Below are positions 2,728-61,263 of a DNA stretch of 64,000 nucleotides, piece after piece. The number at the start of each line of letters is the position of its first letter. Within the stretch, counting starts at the first letter, position 1. Origin of the DNA: Candidatus Zixiibacteriota bacterium (lineage in GTDB: Bacteria; Zixibacteria; MSB-5A5; JAABVY01). The notes under the pieces were generated by a model. That model saw only the letters and a program-made list of their open reading frames with translations. It made no database searches and was not told where the DNA came from. A program made the position numbers and the translations under genes. Location of the stretch: the NCBI GenBank assembly GCA_011056555.1, contig DSEQ01000009.1, positions 16,281-80,280 on the forward strand. The letters run 5' to 3'.

Positions 2728-3690
2728 TCAATGCCCCTGTCTGACAGCAAGCAGAACCGCTCCTGTCACGACAAGATTCAGGATCGCCAACGGCAGCATG
2801 AGCTTCCAGCCCCACGACATAAGCTGATCGAAACGCGGACGGGGAAGCGAGGCCCGCAGCAATATGAAGAAACATATAAAGGCAAACAGCTTTATGAAAA
2901 ACCAGACTAGGGGCGGAAGAAACGGCCCATGCCATCCGCCCAGAAAAAATGTCGTGATGACTGCCGATATCAGTACAATGCCGATATATTCGCCCACAAA
3001 AAACATTCCGAACTTCATCCCCGAATACTCGGAATGAAATCCGGCCACAAGTTCGCTTTCCGCCTCGGGTATATCAAACGGCAGGCGATGCATCTCAGCC
3101 AGCCCCGCCACCGTGAAAACCACAAATCCAAAAAACTGCGGGACAATGTTCCACATGCCCGCCTGGGCATTTACAATCTCGCGCAGATTAAATGATCCCG
3201 CCATCGCTACAACTCCCAGAAGAGAAAGCCCCATGAATACCTCATAGCTGATCATCTGCGAGGCGGCCCTGAGCCCGCCCAGAAGGGAATATTTATTATT
3301 TGACGACCATCCGCCCAAAACAACGCTGTATGCTCCCAGTGACGACATCGCCAGAAAGAACAACACGCCGACATTGATATCCATCACTCCGATACCCGGC
3401 GCGATCGGAATCACAGCAAACGACATCAGGACTGTCAGCATGATTATTCCCGGAGCGATAAAGAAAACAAACTTATCGGCAAAGGGAGGTATCCAGTCCT
3501 CCTTGAAAAAAATCTTAATCATATCGGCTATCACCTGAAATATACCGAATGGTCCTACGCGGTTGGGGCCGTAACGGTCCTGCCACAGCGCCAGGAGACG
3601 GCGCTCGAGCCAGATTAATCCGGGCGCAAGCGTAAATACGCCCAGAAGTATGCCGATTGCTGTTAATGCTGACCAGTCTAAATTAATCAT
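2728..3690 (-). CDS. nuoH: NADH-quinone oxidoreductase subunit H
   Basis: 320-aa polytopic ND1-like protein in operon order. Confidence 0.9.
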
Positions 3691-3691
3691 A

Positions 3692-6388
3692 TCATTTCGC
3701 TATTTTGCCGAATGCGGGCAATTCAAAGTAGTTCATGCCGGGCAGGCCGACCGGAATACCCGCAATATTATCCGGAAGACTGTTCATAATTTTTACCGGC
3801 AGACTGATTTGACCATCCTTTATACTTACCTTGACTTTATCCCTTGAACTCACACCTGTCTTTTCAGCGCTCCTTTTGTTCAATGCCAGGTATGCATCCG
3901 GCACAAGCTCCGAAACGGCCTCGGCTTCATTGCTCAATTCCTCACTTCCGAAGATATGATATAACGGCACGAAATAGAACTCATCCTGACGAGGTTTGAA
4001 GGCATCAGGAATAGTCTTGAAGTATTCCGGCTTGGCATGATCTCCGGGCTCGATTAATCGAACACCCGGATCGCCGCCCTTCAGCTCACCCGCAACTTCC
4101 TGTTGATACCTGGCCACCGACTGCACCGAATTCCATCCCGGCGCCCAGAAGAAAGAAATCAGCGATGAGGGCCTCGGGCCGGCAAAACCTTCCATCGAAA
4201 ACGACAAAGGCGAATCGGGATCATCCGGCGGCTTTGGTTCATGCACACTTTTATCAGCATACATTGCAGTGCGGCCGCTGTATCTCATGGGTGCACGAGG
4301 AATTTTCTGCTCATTAATTCTGAAATTTGCCGAGGGCGCAATTTCAATCTTCGGATTAATTCCCTCAAGACTATTTAAAACGGCATCACTTATATCATCC
4401 AGTGCTTTCCATTTTTCAGCTTTTTTGTCATCCAGCTTTATCATGATATCACGAATCCATCGCCAGCTTTCCTGAAGAATCGGATCCGGGTTCAGTGCCT
4501 GGAAGAAACGCTGCACCCTTCCTTCATTATTTATCAACGTCCCATCACCCTCGGCAAATGCAGCCGCAGGCAAAATGGCAGAGGCCCCTTCACTGGTTCT
4601 ATTTTTCAAATAATCCACGACAATTAGATTTGCGCATTTTTCCAAAAATTTATCTACTTGTGTTTTATCAGCATGCCGATACAAATCACTCTCAAGAATA
4701 ATAACCGTATCGGCAGTACCATTTTCCACATCTTCAAAGGCCTTTTCGAGATCGTACCCGCCCAAAAAAGCAGTACCCATGCTGTTGCATTCAGGTAAGG
4801 TATAAACTATATCAGCCTTCCTGTCATCCCTACAAAGTGCCCGGGCAACATTGGCGGCGGCCTCGATCACAGCCTCGCTTCGCATGCTCATACCGGAGAT
4901 TAGCACCGGCTGTCTGGCGTTTTTCAGTGCCCCGGCAATTTCTTCGGCCATGGTCTTTATTTCATCGGGAAGACCCTCAACCGCAGGCGATGATTCATCC
5001 AGTGCATGCGCCACAGCGTAACCAAGACGCGCTATGTCGTCAGGGGCGGCACGATATGTTTTGGCCGCGAATTCGTCCAGTTTGGTCCAGGACGGCGTGG
5101 CCAGATAAAACGGCCCTTTCTCATCCTGCAGGTATTCGCGGATCGCAGCGTCGTTCCACCTGTCGATATGTATCTGCTGAATATCATCGATCGGCTTGTT
5201 CCGTATGGCCTGCTTGACCGCCAGATCCAGCATCGGCGCAGTATTTGTCAAATCCTCTCCCAGTACAAAAACAGCATCGGCCGTTTCGACATCATGAAGA
5301 GAGGCCGGCCGCGCAGGACCATTTCTCAAAATACTTAATATTTTTCGGGCAAGTTTATTCTCCCTGGCAGATAAACCGGAATAGAAATTGTGCTCGCCCA
5401 CCATGCTTTTCAAAGCGAAATTTGCTTCCAGGCTTGCGCGAGGTGATCCTATGCCAATTACTTTGCTCCTGTCCTTCAATAATTCAGAGGTTTTTGCGGC
5501 GGCAGAGTCTCGATCAAAATCTTCAACCTTACCCTCAAATATCGGTTTTCTAATCCTCTTGTTGCTATTGGTAAATTCGTAGCCGAATCTTCCGCGATCA
5601 CACATAAAGTAGCCGTTAACCCGTCGGTTATACCTGTTCAATATCCGCACCGCTTTGTTGTATCTTTCGCCCACCAGCGTATTGCATCCCAGGCTGCAGT
5701 GATGACATACAGACGGCGCGCTCTGCAAATCCCATTTGCGGGTGTAATGCTTTTTCAATGTTTTGTCCGTGAATACTCCTGTGGGACACACCTCTACCAA
5801 ATTACCGCTGAATTCGCTTTGCAGTATGCCCTCTTCACTTCGTCCAAAATAGACATAATCATGCGAGGCCATATCCTGCAAATCCTTGCCGCCCGCATAA
5901 TCCCGGTAAAACCTTACACAGCGATAACAGGCAATACAGCGGTTCATCTCGTGATTTATAAACGGCCCGAGATATTGGTTTCTGTGTGTACGTTTCTTGA
6001 AGCGGAACTTACGATAATTATGTCCGGTCATTACGGTCATATCCTGCAGGTGGCATTCGCCGCCCTCGTCGCAAACCGGGCAGTCATGCGGATGGTTCAC
6101 CATCAGCCATTCGATAATACTGGCCCGGAACTTGCGCGCAGCGGCGGCTTCAATCGAAATTCTCATCCCGTCCTGCACCGGCTGCATACAGGCCATAATC
6201 AGATTGCCCTCTTTATCATCCTCATCCCTGTACTGGATCACCGCACACTGCCGGCAGGCACCCACAGAACCAAGCGCCGGGTGCCAGCAGAAATAGGGCA
6301 AATTAAGGCCGAGCGATAGAACGGCCTGCAGAAGGTTCTGGCCCTTTTCGACCTCGTATGATTTATCATCTATGTAAATAGTAACCAT
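3692..6388 (-). CDS. nuoG: NADH-quinone oxidoreductase subunit G (75-kDa subunit, long form with molybdopterin-oxidoreductase-like domain)
   Basis: 898 aa. The N-terminus has 2Fe-2S and 4Fe-4S cysteine motifs ([15 protein letters not shown] and [10 protein letters not shown]), and the protein is in operon order. Confidence 0.9.
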
Positions 6389-6391
6389 ATC

Positions 6392-7669
6392 TTACTTTCT
6401 CCAGGGACACTGCTTATCCTTGATGTGTTTCTCGAAGTCATCTCGAAAGTATTTCAATGCGCTCTGCAATGGTTCCACCGCACCAGGCGCCAGCGCGCAG
6501 AATGTCCTGCCGGGGCCCAGGAAGTTGCAATGCAGCTCGAGCTGCTCCAGGTCCTCCATGCGTCCCTCGCCGTTTTCGATAGCCATCAGCATCTTATGCG
6601 TCCACGGGAGCCCATCACGGCAGGGCGTGCACCATCCGCAGGATTCCTGTGCGAAAAACTTTTCGAGGTTCACAAGCATCGCCACCGGACAGGTTTTATC
6701 ATCCAGAATGATCATCGTCCCGGTACCCATCCTGCTTCCAACCTTCATAATGGAACCAAAATCCATCGGTGTATCCAGATGCTCCTCCACCAGAAAATCT
6801 GTCGAGGCCCCGCCGGGGAGAAGGCCCTTGAATTTGTATCCATCCCGCATCCCGCCGGCATGCTCCTCCAGAATCTCCCGCACAGTCGTCCCCATCGGAA
6901 GCTCCCATGCTCCCGGCCTTTTCACCCTCCCGCTCACGCCGTAAATCTTGGTACCTCCGTCGCCGGTTTTGCTGAGCTTTTTGTACCAGTCGGCGCCATT
7001 GACAATAATGCCCGGCACATTGCAGAGCGTCTCAACATTCTGCACAATCGACGGCTTTCCCCAGAGCCCGCTGGTCTGGGGGAAGGGTGGCTTGGCGCGG
7101 GGAGTGGCACGTTTGCCCTCCAGCGCATTCAAAAGCCCTGTCTCCTCACCGCACATGTAGCGTCCGGCGGAAACATGAATATACATCTCCAGATCATAGC
7201 CGCTGCCGAGAATATTCTTACCGAGATATCCCGCCTCATATGCCTCTGCAATCGCTTTCCGCAGCAGTTCCTCCGACCGCTTGTAAGCCCAGCGCAAAAA
7301 GATATATGCGGCGCGGGCCTGAATTGCATATGACGAGATTATCATGCCCTCGATCAGGAGATGCGGATCGCCCTCCATCAAGATTCTATCCTTGAATGTG
7401 CCCGGCTCCATCTCGTCGGCATTGGCGATCAGATACTTTGTTCTGGGAGCCTCATCACCCATCGGCACAAAGCTCCACTTCATGCCGGTGCCGAAACCGG
7501 CTCCGCCTCTGCCTCGAAGGTTGGCGTCGGTAACCTCCTCCTGCACCTTCTGCGGGGACATCTCCCTCAATGCCTTTTTGAACCCTGCGTAACCTCCGGC
7601 CCTTTCATAGCCCCTGATATCAAGAGGTCCGCGCTCGGGATCAATATTTTTTGTCAGCGGTTTTTCCAT
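6392..7669 (-). CDS. nuoF: NADH-quinone oxidoreductase subunit F (51-kDa, FMN/NADH-binding)
   Basis: GRGGAGFGTG glycine-rich motif and a C-terminal 4Fe-4S cysteine motif (ESCGWCTPCRDG). Confidence 0.92.
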   Translation of the reverse strand: MEKPLTKNIDPERGPLDIRGYERAGGYAGFKKALREMSPQKVQEEVTDANLRGRGGAGFGTGMKWSFVPMGDEAPRTKYLIANADEMEPGTFKDRILMEGDPHLLIEGMIISSYAIQARAAYIFLRWAYKRSEELLRKAIAEAYEAGYLGKNILGSGYDLEMYIHVSAGRYMCGEETGLLNALEGKRATPRAKPPFPQTSGLWGKPSIVQNVETLCNVPGIIVNGADWYKKLSKTGDGGTKIYGVSGRVKRPGAWELPMGTTVREILEEHAGGMRDGYKFKGLLPGGASTDFLVEEHLDTPMDFGSIMKVGSRMGTGTMIILDDKTCPVAMLVNLEKFFAQESCGWCTPCRDGLPWTHKMLMAIENGEGRMEDLEQLELHCNFLGPGRTFCALAPGAVEPLQSALKYFRDDFEKHIKDKQCPWRK

Positions 7670-7671
7670 TT

Positions 7672-8136
7672 TTATTTCAGCTTATCAATGATTTCATCAA
7701 TTCTTTCAGGGGTCAGATCCCCATATGTTTCCCTGTCGATTATCATGGCCGGGGCCCTCTCACATACCCCCAGGCACGGGATTGTCAGAAGAGTAAACTT
7801 GCCGTCTGCGGTGGTCTCGCCCAGGTCAATCCCCAGCTTTTTTTTCAGATGGTCCAGAACGGTATCATATCCCATAATCCAGCAGCTCACACTATCGCAA
7901 ATCAGGATTACATGCTCCCCCACCTCGCGCCTGAATATCAGGCTGTAGAATGTCGCCACGCTGTCGAGTGCATCCAGGGACATCTCAAGATATTCAGCCA
8001 GATCCTTGAGGCTATCGTCGGAAACCCATCTGCGATGACGCTGGATAATCTTGAGCGCCTCGATCACAACCGCCTGCCTGGTCGGGCTGTGAGAGAGCTC
8101 CTGGTCTATCTCCTTCTTTTCTTCTTCACTCAGCAT
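7672..8136 (-). CDS. nuoE: NADH-quinone oxidoreductase subunit E (24-kDa, thioredoxin-like 2Fe-2S)
   Basis: 154 aa with cysteines in ICDSVSCW ... CLGVCERAP. Confidence 0.9.
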   Translation of the reverse strand: MLSEEEKKEIDQELSHSPTRQAVVIEALKIIQRHRRWVSDDSLKDLAEYLEMSLDALDSVATFYSLIFRREVGEHVILICDSVSCWIMGYDTVLDHLKKKLGIDLGETTADGKFTLLTIPCLGVCERAPAMIIDRETYGDLTPERIDEIIDKLK

Positions 8137-56920: not shown

Positions 56921-57407
56921 ATGTGACTCCTGTATAAAATAAAATATTTTTGCAAAATTAAGGGAAGATTCAGTTTTGGCAGGCTTCTACAGCCCATCGA
57001 AGATTTCCTCTCTTCCGCGTCCCCGGGAGAGCGCGAAAATAGCCCGTCTTTAAGGTCATAAGATAATCATACGCACCATATCTGTCAACCTGTTGTGAAA
57101 TTTACATCAGAATTTGTGGGGAGTATATATTTAATCAGGAGTGTTTTGGTCTTTTGTAGTAAATAAGAAATTTTGTAGCCCACATTTGGGATTTATGGGG
57201 TGCCCCATCCCCGCAAGGGGTGGGTTTGCACGTGCCGGCAGAAACCCTTTCCTGCCGGAGATATACATGATTAGATGGCTTAGCAGGTCAAACCCTTCCG
57301 GGACTTGAACAGCCGTCGGGTATTGGTTGCCGACGCGACATAAGAGATTCTTCGCCCGTCAAAGGCCGGGTCCTTGACTTCGCTCTGAATGACTCTGGCA
57401 AACATAC

Positions 57408-57462: not shown

Positions 57463-58206
57463 TTAGAAATGCACAGCCACTCCCAGACGTATATTCGCTG
57501 CATCCAGGTGAAGCCCATCCTCAAAGGTGTCGAAATCGGTGTCGTAGAAACCGTAGTAGTCGTAGTACTCCAGGTCGAGAAAATACCAGCGGTTCTCAAG
57601 AATCATCGCGTATTCGGCCAGGATGCTCAAGGATCTATTTAAAAAAACCTCCATTCCAACCGAGCCCTCGACTCCAAAGCCGAGCTGTCCGCTCTCGTCA
57701 ACCCTGACATCATAAACCCAGTCGTATGGATAGTCGTAATAAATTATAGCAAGGTCCGGATCGGTTTCCCGGTAACTCAGACGCGGACCTGCACCGAAAT
57801 AAAATCTCAGACGGTCATCGATACGGGGATAAAACAAATATTGAAGTGAAATACTCCCTCCCGAGATGTCAAAAAAGTCGATATCCCTGAAAACAAACGA
57901 GTAACCGTCATGGAAGAATACCCTGTCCTCATAAAGGTTGTCATCATCCTCGAAAAACCCGATATTTAAACGCATTGCACCCTCACGCGAGACCTGCTTT
58001 GTGAGTGAAAGCATGCCGCCGCGGAAATCATCATTATCAAAACTGCGGTCCAGATGAAGCTGCAGGGACCATGTATTGAACCGCTCCATAGGCGGCTGGC
58101 CTTTCGGCACACGTCTGATGCGGGCCTCTGCCTGCGATGGAAAGAGCAGCGCGCCCAGCGCAAAGACGATCAACATAAACAGTATTGCTTTTGTCCAGTC
58201 TGACAT
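57463..58206 (-). CDS. outer-membrane beta-barrel protein, unknown function
   Basis: Signal peptide, Tyr/Asp-rich alternating strands, and a C-terminal ..GVAVHF. A GGAGG SD lies upstream. Confidence 0.55.
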   Translation of the reverse strand: MSDWTKAILFMLIVFALGALLFPSQAEARIRRVPKGQPPMERFNTWSLQLHLDRSFDNDDFRGGMLSLTKQVSREGAMRLNIGFFEDDDNLYEDRVFFHDGYSFVFRDIDFFDISGGSISLQYLFYPRIDDRLRFYFGAGPRLSYRETDPDLAIIYYDYPYDWVYDVRVDESGQLGFGVEGSVGMEVFLNRSLSILAEYAMILENRWYFLDLEYYDYYGFYDTDFDTFEDGLHLDAANIRLGVAVHF

Positions 58207-58299
58207 TTTATCTAACCTCCGAATTTATTCTTTCATTCTGGAGAATATTAAAACAAGTGCCGTGCCAGAAATTATAACTGATTATTTTCTAATATGTTA

Positions 58300-58470
58300 G
58301 GCACGCACAATGGATTCCTGCGTATTGGCCCCCGCACAAAAATAGTGCAAGAGATTTTGGGGCATGCACAAGGATTGGCAGAACCCAGGATTTGTGCGTT
58401 GTGCACGTCCCCGTGCACAATGTCATTCTCAACGATTTGTCACGGCGCACGGGGACGTACGCCGTGCACG
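58300..58470. repeat. GC-rich repeat block with three GTGCAC hexamers and a perfect 12-bp inverted repeat ACGTCCCCGTGC (58405-58416) / GCACGGGGACGT (58447-58458) separated by 30 nt
   Basis: Read directly. The block is embedded in otherwise AT-rich DNA. Confidence 0.6.
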
Positions 58471-58649
58471 AATGTGGGTGAAAATCATAAAAAGAAACCC
58501 ACCGCTAAAGCGGATAGGGCACCCAAGCATTAGAAAAGATACTATTGGAGCGTTTAATATATTGCTATTCAAGTAATGAGATCAATTTATATTTGCTTGC
58601 AAAAAAACGATTTGCGACTATTCTATATAATTAGATGAAAGGAGAAGCG

Positions 58650-59087
58650 ATGGATGTAATTAATCTATTTGCCAAGCTTAATTTAGAAAAAATTGACTTT
58701 GATGGCAGTATAACAGCAACAACACCGGATCAATTCATTGCGCAATTTAAGAAAGTGTGTTCATGTCAGGCATCAAAACACAACCAGTCTATTGTATATG
58801 TATGGCATACAGAGAAAGCAATATCTCGTTTAAGGGGAAAAAGTACAATTGTTTACATTGGTAAAACCGATGCTACATTTTACACAAGACATTATCGCTA
58901 TGCCGAGACGGAGGCTTCAGGTAATAACTGGAAAAGATATAGCTATATCATTAATCAATATGGGGCAATAGGATTTTGTTGTGCGAGAATTCCTTCGCCA
59001 AATACTCCTCTGGAAATAGAAAACAGGTTGCTTCAAAAATATTTCGAGGAACATCTGGAACTACCCCCCATAAACAAAAGCCTATAA
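58650..59087 (+). CDS. small GIY-YIG-like domain protein (putative nuclease) in an AT-rich islet
   Basis: AAAGGAG SD with ATG at 58650. The motif segment is VYVWHTEKAISRLRGKSTIVYIGKTDATFYTRHYRY, with Glu and Asn downstream. Codon usage is visibly AT-richer than in neighbouring genes. Confidence 0.55.
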   Translation: MDVINLFAKLNLEKIDFDGSITATTPDQFIAQFKKVCSCQASKHNQSIVYVWHTEKAISRLRGKSTIVYIGKTDATFYTRHYRYAETEASGNNWKRYSYIINQYGAIGFCCARIPSPNTPLEIENRLLQKYFEEHLELPPINKSL

Positions 59088-59138
59088 AAAATATGCCTGC
59101 TTATCTCTGGGCACCCCAAAAATTCAAACATTGGGTGG

Positions 59139-59162
59139 CACGCCCAAATTCATTTGGGCGTG
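59139..59162. repeat. perfect 24-bp palindrome CACGCCCAAAT-tc-ATTTGGGCGTG
   Basis: 11-bp perfect arms read directly. Related imperfect copies (CTGCCCAAAC..GTTTGAGCAG) lie nearby. Confidence 0.6.
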
Positions 59163-59267
59163 GTCTTCTAATGTACCTGCCCAAACAAAGTTTGAGCAGG
59201 CCACCCATTGAATTGAGATAAAAAATCACAAGCTAAAGCTTGGGACACCGGGGCGAATCTGTTCACA

Positions 59268-59297
59268 AGAAAAAAAGCATGATCACAGGGATCATGC
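59268..59297 (-). terminator. rho-independent terminator after the GatE-like gene
   Basis: Stem GCATGATC/GATCATGC (8 bp) flanked by A7 on the plus strand, which is T7 on the minus strand. Confidence 0.7.
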
Positions 59298-59325
59298 CCT
59301 ACAATTAATTCAAATGGGAGTTTTA

Positions 59326-61263
59326 TTACGATGTCGCCGGATGTTTGGCTTTGACTTGCTCTTTGACCATATCCTTGAGCTTTTCCGGGGGGAACTTGCC
59401 GCGGGTTTCTGATTTGACCTGACCAATAATATACTCTATCAGCTTTTCTTCGGATTTGAATCTGTCGCCATCAAGCTCTGCGGCTTTGCTTTCTATTAGA
59501 GAGCTTACATCACTCTCAGTCATCGGTATTAAATTCAATTCATCGAAAAGCCTCTCCAGCGGAATATTCGTGCCATTTGATGAAAGATAATCGAGAGCTA
59601 CATAGACCGCTTCGTTTGGCAATTCACGTTGTCCGGTTTGCTCCAGAATGTAGGCCAGGAGATCATCGGAAATAAATATCAGGTCCCTGCCCTGGCGTTT
59701 CAGATTTTTCAGATAGCCCTCGAAAAGATATGCCAGGAAAACCGGGTCAGTGAGATTGCGCTTCAATAACCGGTCGTACATAAGTGCAAATTTTGAACGT
59801 CCCAGGGAATAGACCAGTTCATCGGACAGCCCCAGTTCCATCCAGCGTTCATCGCGGCTGTAGGCCGGGTCCGGAAGAACCGCCCTGAGCTTATCCAGAC
59901 GATCTTTGGTGATTGCCACCGGCGAGGAATCGGTGTCGGGATACATACGGTCCGGGCCGGGAAGTATCCGTTCGAAATCCGTAATGCCCTCGCCAATATG
60001 CTGACGGGTTTCATTGGGCACGCCCTCGGTCGCCTCCACAGCACGGATCTTCACTTCCGACAGCGCCATGTTGACATCAGCTTCAGTGCCCCAGGTTATA
60101 ATAATCGCATCGGTATGACGCATATGGAAGACCTTTTTAATCTCGTCGCAGATTTCATCCGGCAGTTCGGCACAACTGATATCGTCGGAATGGATGATGT
60201 TCGGATATTTATCGATGCAGGCGATTACCTTAATTCGTCCGGAGATCTCATCGGCAAAGGTCTTATTCGGCTGGGTCTTGTAATTGAGTATGCCCGCAAA
60301 GCGTTCCAGCATGATACCGCCAACCTTGCCGCCATTGTTTATGACCTCGGATATCACCGGATGCGCTATCTTCTTGAAAATCTCGGTCAGGTCCTTCTTC
60401 TCGCTGTGAATTGTACTGGGGGATATTCCGCGTTTGCGCAGTTCTGATTTTATCTCCAGAAGCGATTTTTGCCTTAAACCCTCGACCTCGGTCAGGCGCT
60501 TGATATATCCGGTTTTATCAATGCCCTTGAGCTCCACCCGAGTGCCGCCGTCGATGGAAACATTGACATCCTGACGGGTTACTCCAATCCCGCGCCGTAC
60601 CCGTCCCGATGAGCGCAGCACGCGTCCGATAACCTCATCGACTTCCATCGCCTCGGTCGGAGTTTGCATATCCGGATAGGTCACAATCTCGACCAAAGGA
60701 GTTGAAAGACGATCTGTCCTGAACCTGATCTGATGTCCAATATCGTGCACCTCGCGGCAGGCATCCTCCTCAAGAGCGACTTGAATAATCCTGATTTTGC
60801 GGTCCTTGTATGGTATCCACCCTTCCACACCGACAATGGCGGTGCGCTGGAAGCCTGTGGGGATCGAGCCATCCAGATACTGCTTTCTGGTAATATGAAG
60901 TTCATCCACAATATGGCAGTTGAAGAGCATGGAAATCTGGAGGGCGATATCGAGAGCCTCCTGGTTGATCGGAAAAGGCGGGGTATCATCCATCTCATAG
61001 GTGCAGACATTATCCCGGAAGAGCTCGTAAACCACCTCTTTTTTGGTCTTGAATTCCATCAAGGCGGTGCCGTCATACTCTCCCAGTTCGGAAAGTGTGG
61101 GGCGCATATGTCTTACGATTAAACCGTCGGGAGGACCGTCAACATAACCGACCGGGCAGCGGCAGAACAGCTTTTTGGCGGTATCGAGCTGTTGATGAAC
61201 CTCCAGCCCACACTTGAAGCCAAGCTCTTTGAATCTGCTGTCGTCTAAATTATCCCAGTTCAT
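59326..61263 (-). CDS. GatB/GatE-family tRNA-dependent amidotransferase subunit, GatE-type (archaeal-like, with large insertion)
   Basis: 645 aa. The N-terminus GLEVHQQLDTAKKLFCRCP matches the GatE/GatB start. A cradle motif VTRQDVNVSIDGGTRVELKG is present. A ~160-aa insertion precedes the helical/YqeY-like tail. Confidence 0.65.
   Translation of the reverse strand: MNWDNLDDSRFKELGFKCGLEVHQQLDTAKKLFCRCPVGYVDGPPDGLIVRHMRPTLSELGEYDGTALMEFKTKKEVVYELFRDNVCTYEMDDTPPFPINQEALDIALQISMLFNCHIVDELHITRKQYLDGSIPTGFQRTAIVGVEGWIPYKDRKIRIIQVALEEDACREVHDIGHQIRFRTDRLSTPLVEIVTYPDMQTPTEAMEVDEVIGRVLRSSGRVRRGIGVTRQDVNVSIDGGTRVELKGIDKTGYIKRLTEVEGLRQKSLLEIKSELRKRGISPSTIHSEKKDLTEIFKKIAHPVISEVINNGGKVGGIMLERFAGILNYKTQPNKTFADEISGRIKVIACIDKYPNIIHSDDISCAELPDEICDEIKKVFHMRHTDAIIITWGTEADVNMALSEVKIRAVEATEGVPNETRQHIGEGITDFERILPGPDRMYPDTDSSPVAITKDRLDKLRAVLPDPAYSRDERWMELGLSDELVYSLGRSKFALMYDRLLKRNLTDPVFLAYLFEGYLKNLKRQGRDLIFISDDLLAYILEQTGQRELPNEAVYVALDYLSSNGTNIPLERLFDELNLIPMTESDVSSLIESKAAELDGDRFKSEEKLIEYIIGQVKSETRGKFPPEKLKDMVKEQVKAKHPATS

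Follow-up and report, generated by a model that had tools for sequence, protein, structure and literature searches.

A probable horizontally acquired module encoding a putative compact GIY-YIG endonuclease beside GatE in a Zixibacteria genome

Among the endonucleases with a GIY-YIG fold, T4 endonuclease II (EndoII or DenA; PDB 2wsh) is tetrameric, binds two DNA molecules and introduces nicks at a degenerate 16-bp site, and mutation of its residues G49, R57 and E118 alters recognition, binding or catalysis (PMC2764454). The fold is shared by R.Hpy188I and R.Eco29kI, by the homing endonucleases I-TevI, I-BmoI and T4 Seg, and by PD-T4-3 (PDB 9u75), a 248-aa defence nuclease with extra domains that is specific for 5-hydroxymethylcytosine. 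The GIY-YIG homing enzymes are two-domain proteins (PMC3664794), and phage defence encoded by integron cassettes has been reported (bioRxiv 10.1101/2024.07.02.601719). Here, we describe a 582-bp segment in a window of 64,000 nucleotides, by which we mean the whole stretch of DNA that was analysed, from contig DSEQ01000009.1 of a Candidatus Zixiibacteriota bacterium. The segment is located in the spacer between an outer-membrane protein (OMP)-barrel-like gene and a GatE gene (58207-59325, as delimited by open reading frame (ORF) calls and profile search). With a probability of roughly 0.6, it is a horizontally acquired single-gene module that codes for a compact stand-alone GIY-YIG endonuclease of the T4 EndoII or R.Hpy188I type, and this nuclease is probably a defence or conflict gene.

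The protein differs from each of the described systems in several respects. It is about 14% identical to EndoII, with no link between the two in HMMER, its GIY-YIG hairpin is nine residues longer, the spacing from the glutamate to the asparagine is 18 rather than 12 residues, and its gene is cellular or cassette-borne whereas EndoII is phage-borne. In contrast to R.Hpy188I and R.Eco29kI, the gene is not adjoined by a methyltransferase, and the structural similarity to these two enzymes is much weaker than that to EndoII. Compared with I-TevI, I-BmoI and T4 Seg, the protein contains neither the linker nor the DNA-binding domain, and unlike the GIY-YIG homing endonuclease genes, the gene has no intron or phage context and sits in an insert that is flanked by a duplication. 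The similarity to PD-T4-3 is weak. Homologues in the Vibrio plasmid pVPTW011 and in the metagenome-assembled genome (MAG) GCA_037446575.1 are one-gene integron cassettes of about 600-660 bp, placed between attC sites. The window copy differs from these in that it has its own 123-bp leader, no attC or attI, and no intI within about 10 kb.

The 145-residue protein and its family

The sole credible ORF of the spacer is preceded by AAAGGAGAAGCG, which includes a GGAG Shine-Dalgarno sequence, and the gene callers of three public sources agree on its ATG start (Table 1). This is in line with the original prediction, made by a model from the letters alone, that the only ORF in this region is a 145-aa protein with a strong Shine-Dalgarno sequence. 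The same prediction proposed a GIY-YIG-like motif of the form VYVW…YIGKT…R..H…E…N. The motif is present in the sequence, but V49, W52 and H81 are not conserved in the family, and a profile search with the ORF alone does not detect the similarity. No usable match was obtained from Pfam, NCBIfam, PADLOC or PHROGs; there was none to PF01541 at E<=1, let alone at its gathering score of 22.6 bits, and none to a PADLOC model of known anti-phage defence at E<=10. A word-indexed search of 5.8 billion proteins returned the query itself and nothing else.

An exhaustive HMMER search of 1.84 billion cluster representatives identified a family of 135 proteins at E<=1e-3, including 64 at E<=1e-10, with the query's own cluster counted. 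Nearly all members are 130-170 aa long, and the ten family clusters that were checked contain 1-4 members each. Three residues, Y50, R80 and E124, are invariant in an alignment of 72 sequences, and another twelve (R60, G63, S65, Y69, I70, G71, Y131, H135, E137, P139, P140 and N142) are conserved in at least 90% of them. The residues that are conserved in GIY-YIG nucleases, among them an arginine some 10 residues past YIG and a metal-binding glutamate, are all present, namely Y50, Y69-I70-G71, R80, E124 and N142, the latter in a PPxN motif. PF01541 is matched by 14 of the 72 members (best E 7e-4), and in the proteins P0017, P0022 and P0025 the VY–YIG–R stretch falls on profile positions 2-38 in the correct register.

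The AlphaFold model of the protein has a predicted local distance difference test score of 97.9, and a single-sequence run gave 40. The model contains the GIY-YIG alpha/beta fold, with a three-stranded sheet that includes the GIY and YIG strands and is flanked by helices. Its best match in Foldseek is Hpy188I. In a structural comparison, the score was 10.1 for T4 EndoII (114 residues, 3.0 Å), 6.4 for the UvrC GIY-YIG domain, 5.2 for both I-TevI and R.Eco29kI, 5.0 for R.Hpy188I and 4.1 for PD-T4-3. An hhalign comparison with EndoII, for which the EndoII sequence was checked to be identical to chain 2wsh_A, pairs Y50 with Y37, Y69-I-G-K-T with Y47-I-G-K-T, and R80 with R57, while E124…P139-P140-x-N142 was matched to EndoII E118…P127-P128-W-N130 by eye only. 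No meaningful hhalign alignment was obtained with the catalytic domain of I-TevI. The GIY-YIG similarity is thus visible only at the level of the family and the structure and not from the ORF alone, and it is the family alignment and the structure that uphold the proposed fold.

The protein also shows the features of the EndoII-like subgroup, with a single domain of about 140 aa, the N-terminal and middle regions, and the PPxN motif at the C-terminal end. The nuclease fold and an N-terminal extension of about 45 aa fill the whole 145 aa, and a C-terminal DNA-binding domain of the homing-enzyme type is not found. Judged from the alignment and the model, the protein is a putative EndoII-like single-domain nuclease with an intact catalytic set and predicted activity. 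By analogy with EndoII, it would probably oligomerize and use one metal ion to nick or cleave DNA. Since there is no partner methylase or antitoxin, the nuclease is most likely tolerated through discrimination against foreign or differently modified DNA, or through tight control, which would make the enzyme an accessory defence or conflict nuclease.

Two further observations concern the family profile. An hmmsearch against PDB sequences was discarded, having returned only spurious matches to a designed repeat protein and RNase HII; the weak match to the designed repeat protein is to entry 8fje. One protein, P0018, is 2201 aa long and contains 17 tandem stretches that match family residues 92-136 (the YG-I-I…E-LL-Y-H part).

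An empty site in close relatives

We recovered three relatives in which the GatE protein is 88-90% identical: L005 (MAG CAZBZV010000064), which is the closest, L014 (JGI 3300035633) and L006. Window positions 58391-58526 align to L005 9475-9344 with 82% identity, and positions 59109-59208 align to L005 9353-9252 with 91% identity. The two matches abut in L005 with an overlap of 10 bp, which corresponds to GGGCACCCAA, a sequence that is single in L005 and, in the window, found at either end of the insert. Because the flanking matches abut, the 582 bp in between are absent from L005, where the empty site reads GCGGATGGGGCACCCAAAATCTCATATATCGGGTGGC. L014 covers the region from the OMP gene to GatE and contains the GCAC block and hairpin A described below, followed directly by a metallophosphoesterase gene of 344 aa, with neither the nuclease ORF nor the three-way-junction element. 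In L006 (89% GatE identity), a different gene follows GatE, and the locus is not collinear with the window. L015, L016 and L018 (75-79% GatE identity) also have other genes after GatE and no nuclease gene near it. A metagenome scan with GatE recovered only a 31% relative and an N-terminal fragment.

Table 1. Coordinates of the insert, its flanks and other elements of the OMP-GatE locus (positions in the 64,000-nt window).
Feature	Position	Strand	Remarks
Inserted module	58527-59108	plus	582 bp, ~34% GC; missing at the collinear L005 site and in L014
5' part of module	58527-58649	plus	AT-rich 123-bp leader, GGAG Shine-Dalgarno before ATG at 58650
Putative EndoII-like GIY-YIG nuclease gene	58650-59087 (stop codon included)	plus	145 aa; GC content at third codon positions (GC3) 0.295
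Flanking direct repeat, left copy	58517-58526	plus	GGGCACCCAA; window versus L005 alignment
Flanking direct repeat, right copy	59109-59119	plus	GGGCACCCCAA; one extra C versus left copy
OMP-barrel-like gene	57463-58206	minus	247 aa, weak PF13505 match
AT-rich upstream region of OMP-barrel gene	58207-58299	minus	28% GC; outside insert
GatE gene	59326-61263	minus	645 aa, PF02934 at 1e-49
Intrinsic terminator of GatE	59274-59300	minus	outside insert
Element A, hairpin (CCC-A-CCGC TAAA GCGG-ATA-GGG)	58495-58526	minus	ends in GGGCACCCAA; also in L005, L014
Element B, degenerate hairpin copy (CAAGC TAAA GCTTG + GGGACACC)	59220-59249	minus	terminator-like, 59242-59229
Third hairpin + GGGCACCC copy, inverted	57198-57232	minus	Aminotran_5/OMP spacer, same local motif cluster
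GTGCAC-rich imperfect palindrome	58390-58473		core TTGTGCAC-N6-GTGCACAA; 36-nt arms, 72% complementary
Three-way-junction-like element	59129-59210		outer stem CATTGGGTGGC/GCCACCCATTG, hairpin 59139-59162, second hairpin ending near 59198

The ORF segment is compositionally foreign. The GC3 of the ORF is outside the range of 0.434-0.668 (median 0.588) observed for the 33 window ORFs of at least 250 aa, so that the codon-usage check suggested in the original prediction agrees with a foreign origin. The proposed AT-rich islet of about 1.1 kb, on the other hand, was recovered only in part. The drop in GC across the spacer is real but patchy and non-uniform, with 28% at 58207-58299, 53% at 58300-58528, 34% at 58529-59109 and 47% at 59110-59262, compared with 48.8% for the whole window, and only 58527-59108 is foreign, whereas the GC-rich palindrome block is not. 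The AT-rich stretch nearest to the OMP-barrel gene contains a minus-strand promoter-like site (58300-58271) ahead of that gene.

A foreign segment that is missing at the same site in close relatives bears out the suggestion of a small horizontal insertion, and the alignment of the locus to L005 and L014 confirms that they do not carry the segment, although its boundaries differ from those first proposed. These had been placed at a direct repeat, GGCACGC(A/C)CAA, with copies at 58300 (GGCACGCACAA) and 59137 (GGCACGCCCAA), delimiting a cassette of about 850 bp with the GTGCAC block and a perfect 24-bp palindrome as its own recombination sites. Both copies of the 10/11 repeat exist, and a further copy, GGCATGCACAA, is present at 58361. 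However, the region contains seven direct pairs of 11-mers with at most one mismatch, compared with a mean of 6.95 in shuffled sequences, which is the chance level. The copy at 58300 is not conserved in L014, and the breakpoints are located elsewhere. The GTGCAC-repeat and inverted-repeat block is found as described, and the palindrome at 59139-59162 also exists, albeit not as a perfect one, since its perfect 11-nt arms surround a non-palindromic TC (22/24). Neither is supported as a recombination site of the cassette, as they occur in relatives without the ORF, the GTGCAC block in L005 and L014 and the palindrome in L005, and so do positions 58391-58526 and 59109-59208 as a whole. The comparison with L005 and L014 refutes the 850-bp cassette, to which we attach virtually no probability.

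The junctions of the insert read GGGCACCC followed by AA, and only 21 nt of the insert remain after the stop codon of the ORF. A promoter is presumed in the leader, where a consensus scan found none. The ends of the insert, GCATTAGAAAAG… and …CTGCTTATCTCT, are not inverted repeats, as judged by inspection and a repeat search. The insert thereby shows the direct duplication of 10-11 bp expected of an insertion sequence or a miniature inverted-repeat transposable element, but neither the terminal inverted repeats nor the transposase. As the original prediction had remarked, no integrase or transposase accompanies the ORF, and no integrase, transposase or recombinase domain was found among the called genes within about 10 kb. 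No transfer RNA or transfer-messenger RNA genes were found, and Rfam gave no matches in the spacer of the window, L005 or L014. The duplication of 10-11 bp fits a staggered-cut transposition or a shared crossover core, used by a site-specific recombinase that acts in trans. It fits neither homing by double-strand-break repair nor the short staggers of GIY-YIG cleavage. For EndoII and I-TevI, the cleavage staggers are 2-4 nt. The module would have entered at the foot of a terminator-like hairpin by recombination supplied in trans, and the duplicated 10-11 bp would represent a target-site duplication or a shared crossover core.

These junctions also bear on whether the ORF is a free-standing homing endonuclease gene, the product of which cuts the empty allele (…GGATGGGGCACCCAAAATC…) so that the gene is copied in by repair, similar to the "intronless homing" of the T4 seg genes. 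Such a process would account for the precise presence/absence polymorphism in an otherwise conserved spacer, and a GIY-YIG fold and a solitary gene with its own leader would be expected. However, double-strand-break repair does not create a 10-bp duplication, and a protein of 145 aa lacks the C-terminal DNA-binding domain of the two-domain homing enzymes. Furthermore, a tblastn search of 50,697 phage genomes gave no matches, the viral fold matches are weak, and the homologues travel as integron cassettes, all of which make homing quite unlikely.

The direction of the change was considered in relation to the tree. The identity between L005 and L014 is about 90% and that of each to the window about 80%, corresponding to ((L005,L014),window). 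As the window is the outgroup to the other two, one gain and one loss are equally parsimonious. The module could therefore be ancestral, with slipped or illegitimate recombination between two GGGCACCC motifs that were already there having removed it from the L005/L014 lineage, and with no insertion at this site in the window lineage. The GGGCACCC motif recurs locally, and the same spacer has undergone a repeat-mediated deletion of the three-way-junction module, which is flanked by direct repeats of about 72 bp in L005 and is absent from L014. Against an ancestral module, the GC3 of 0.295 is far from the host range and shows no sign of drift towards the host composition despite a DNA divergence of about 20%, and such a gene is not found near GatE in the outgroups L015, L016 and L018. 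We regard a loss as unlikely, and the extreme, un-ameliorated GC3 and the outgroups that lack the gene favour a recent gain. Under gain or loss alike, the module is foreign at its first arrival.

Homologues in integrons and other settings

A single match was found among 72,556 plasmids, in Vibrio parahaemolyticus pVPTW011, with 35% identity. This gene (L021 5992-6459), the product of which is WP_025787263.1, is an integron cassette, located between two of 17 attC sites that resemble Vibrio cholerae repeats, in a co-oriented array of small genes. The homologue in MAG GCA_037446575.1 (L022) has 41% identity and lies between canonical attC sites ending in AAAC/GTTATG, at a distance of about 1 kb from a tyrosine recombinase of the integron type, which scores 243 bits against TIGR02249 (cut-off 265) and 239 bits against NF040815 (cut-off 220). 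An attI-like AAACGTTAGTTGC sequence is also present. In this integron (L022 3115-6676), the integrase is co-oriented with the cassettes and the attI-like site is placed just after its stop codon. The same locus contains a 281-nt segment that is duplicated at 99% identity (4687-4967 and 5611-5891).

That two homologues are bona fide cassettes, and that the left junction CCAAGCATTAGAA resembles the CCAAACGTTAG.. R' ends of the attC sites in L022, raises the question of whether the window copy is a decayed integron cassette put in by an integron integrase at a secondary site. We consider this very improbable. No attC follows the ORF, past the stop codon of which only 21 nt of insert remain. A strict R''/R' consensus scan, which missed most of the true Vibrio attC sites in a control, gave only one weakly folding candidate, at 58210-58302. 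Neither a linked integron integrase with attI, as judged from the called genes within about 10 kb, nor a cluster of attC sites is present, the GTT crossover is found at neither junction, and the three-way-junction element downstream of the insert is also present in the empty allele.

Other homologues have different neighbours. In one locus, these are DnaB_C, WYL, Mrr_cat and HNH, in another a SIR2 fragment, DUF4423 and a DDE transposase, and in two more a WYL regulator and a HigBA-like pair, respectively. In L012, the neighbours are DnaB, DUF6232 and a module of Aminotran_5, DUF4007 and a large protein. Here (3499-7940), the nuclease homologue lies beside the Aminotran_5 gene, which is divergent from the DUF4007 gene and from one encoding more than 1126 aa, a module that we take to resemble the SspABCD-type DNA phosphorothioation module. 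Both L009 and the window likewise have an Aminotran_5 gene close to the family member, which may be a coincidence. A search upstream of the homologues found no conserved partner gene. In each of the four other loci measured, the GC content of the homologue is below that of its flanks. The family has the traits of a rare accessory function that is encoded by one gene and moves horizontally, and the contexts of the homologues favour a cassette-borne accessory or defence gene; the defence or conflict label is drawn from contexts that are typical of such genes. L004, a public ENA contig, was rejected as a second context of the nuclease gene, as its ends (1-54 and 669-741) are Nextera adapters, AGATGTGTATAAGAGACAG and CTGTCTCTTATACACATCT, and represent an assembly artefact.

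Several points weigh against a horizontally acquired EndoII-like defence nuclease. The ORF itself has no match in Pfam, NCBIfam or PADLOC, and the Pfam scores of its relatives are below the gathering score (13.8-16.9 bits in those inspected, compared with 22.6). Terminal inverted repeats, attC, integrase or transposase that could explain the insertion were not found, and the 10-bp duplication is unlike the known product of GIY-YIG cleavage. The tree does not settle gain versus loss, and the distant relatives differ in gene order. Finally, the defence role is drawn from about nine neighbourhoods, which share no conserved partner gene.

Resident elements of the spacer

Four elements of the spacer are present in relatives without the ORF and are hence resident and outside the insert, namely the GCAC block, hairpin A, the palindrome and the three-way-junction element. 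Element A is terminator-like on the minus strand, with a stem at 58515-58497 followed by a T-run, and both hairpins A and B are located downstream of GatE's own terminator. The apical stems of the three hairpins in the window differ with compensation (CCGC/GCGG, CCCC/GGGG and CAAGC/GCTTG). The GGGCACCC motif is found six times in the window, compared with 1.7 expected, and the longer hairpin motif is confined to this locus in the window, L005 and L014, with three to four occurrences in 2 kb and none in the remainder of the 64 kb. All gene-content breakpoints among the three haplotypes are located at the 3' edge of GGGCACCC, which may reflect either site-specific recombination or recombination between local repeats.

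An unlikely but more far-reaching idea, drawn from these breakpoints and from the confinement of the motif, concerns the hairpin of about 30 nt ending in GGGCACCC. It might serve an undescribed platform as its recombination site, with single modules being shuffled in the OMP-GatE spacer of this Zixibacteria clade. Among the modules would be the nuclease gene, the metallophosphoesterase gene and the three-way-junction element, and perhaps also the OMP gene. If true, such a platform would be integron-like in outcome, but with a different site and an unlinked trans-acting enzyme. The inverted hairpin and GGGCACCC copies at 57198-57232 and 58495-58526 flank the OMP-barrel gene and the GCAC block. 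The OMP segment may be a movable or invertible module, because L015 and L016 have Aminotran_5 beside NadE with no OMP gene in between.

The GTGCAC block (TGTGCGTnGTGYACGTCCCCGTGC…) is conserved beside the OMP gene in L005 and L014. In L015 (1450-1685; 79% GatE identity), two related copies lie in the stretch that separates NadE from the Aminotran_5 orthologue, with their relative orientation reversed. An RNA hairpin was rejected, as the changes in the arms are uncompensated in L015 when compared by eye, and the block may instead be a protein-binding site.

The three-way-junction element is 91% identical in L005 (9252-9330), compared with 79.5% for the GatE DNA. The fold z-score of the window element is -5.6, and the L005 version taken with terminator A reaches -5.5. 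Rfam contains no match to the element, and its hairpin sequence is absent from viral contigs. L014 contains a single copy of the repeat that flanks the module in L005, and the loss in L014 is a textbook repeat-mediated deletion. The element is contiguous with terminator A on the minus strand in L005, an arrangement resembling that of a small RNA gene, whereas the nuclease module splits the two in the window. It is a candidate minus-strand small RNA.

In L005 (7942-8976) and L014 (7786-8820), the metallophosphoesterase gene, on the minus strand, separates the hairpin motif from GatE, directly adjoins the GatE stop codon and has a host-like GC3 of 0.57-0.59. The window lacks this gene and has GatE's own terminator instead. 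Directly after GGGGCACCC, a patch of 26 nt is wholly different between L005 and L014, with about 90% identity on either side.

The GatE gene itself is archaeal-type, encoding subunit E of the GatDE amidotransferase with a GAD insertion in a bacterial genome. It is about 52% identical to GatE of Thermoplasmata, and many similar copies are found in MAGs of Zixibacteria, Eisenbacteria and Bacteroidetes. A protein identical to the window GatE is recorded in NCBI for a MAG of candidate division Zixibacteria. GatD does not adjoin GatE in the window. An earlier publication states that GatDE is exclusive to archaea (PMC2811023).

Neither the family nor the locus overturns current understanding, and the insert appears to be a fairly ordinary mobile accessory gene. 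The pair of filled and empty sites, with a 10-bp duplication at the foot of a hairpin, provides a tractable case for how a single-gene module enters without an integrase. The analysis also defines a small protein family, with 135 representatives that were mostly seen a single time, which is missed by the current Pfam, NCBIfam and PADLOC models. On structural grounds, its members are cellular relatives of T4 endonuclease II, and the family is a cheap candidate for a one-gene anti-phage or modification-dependent nuclease activity.

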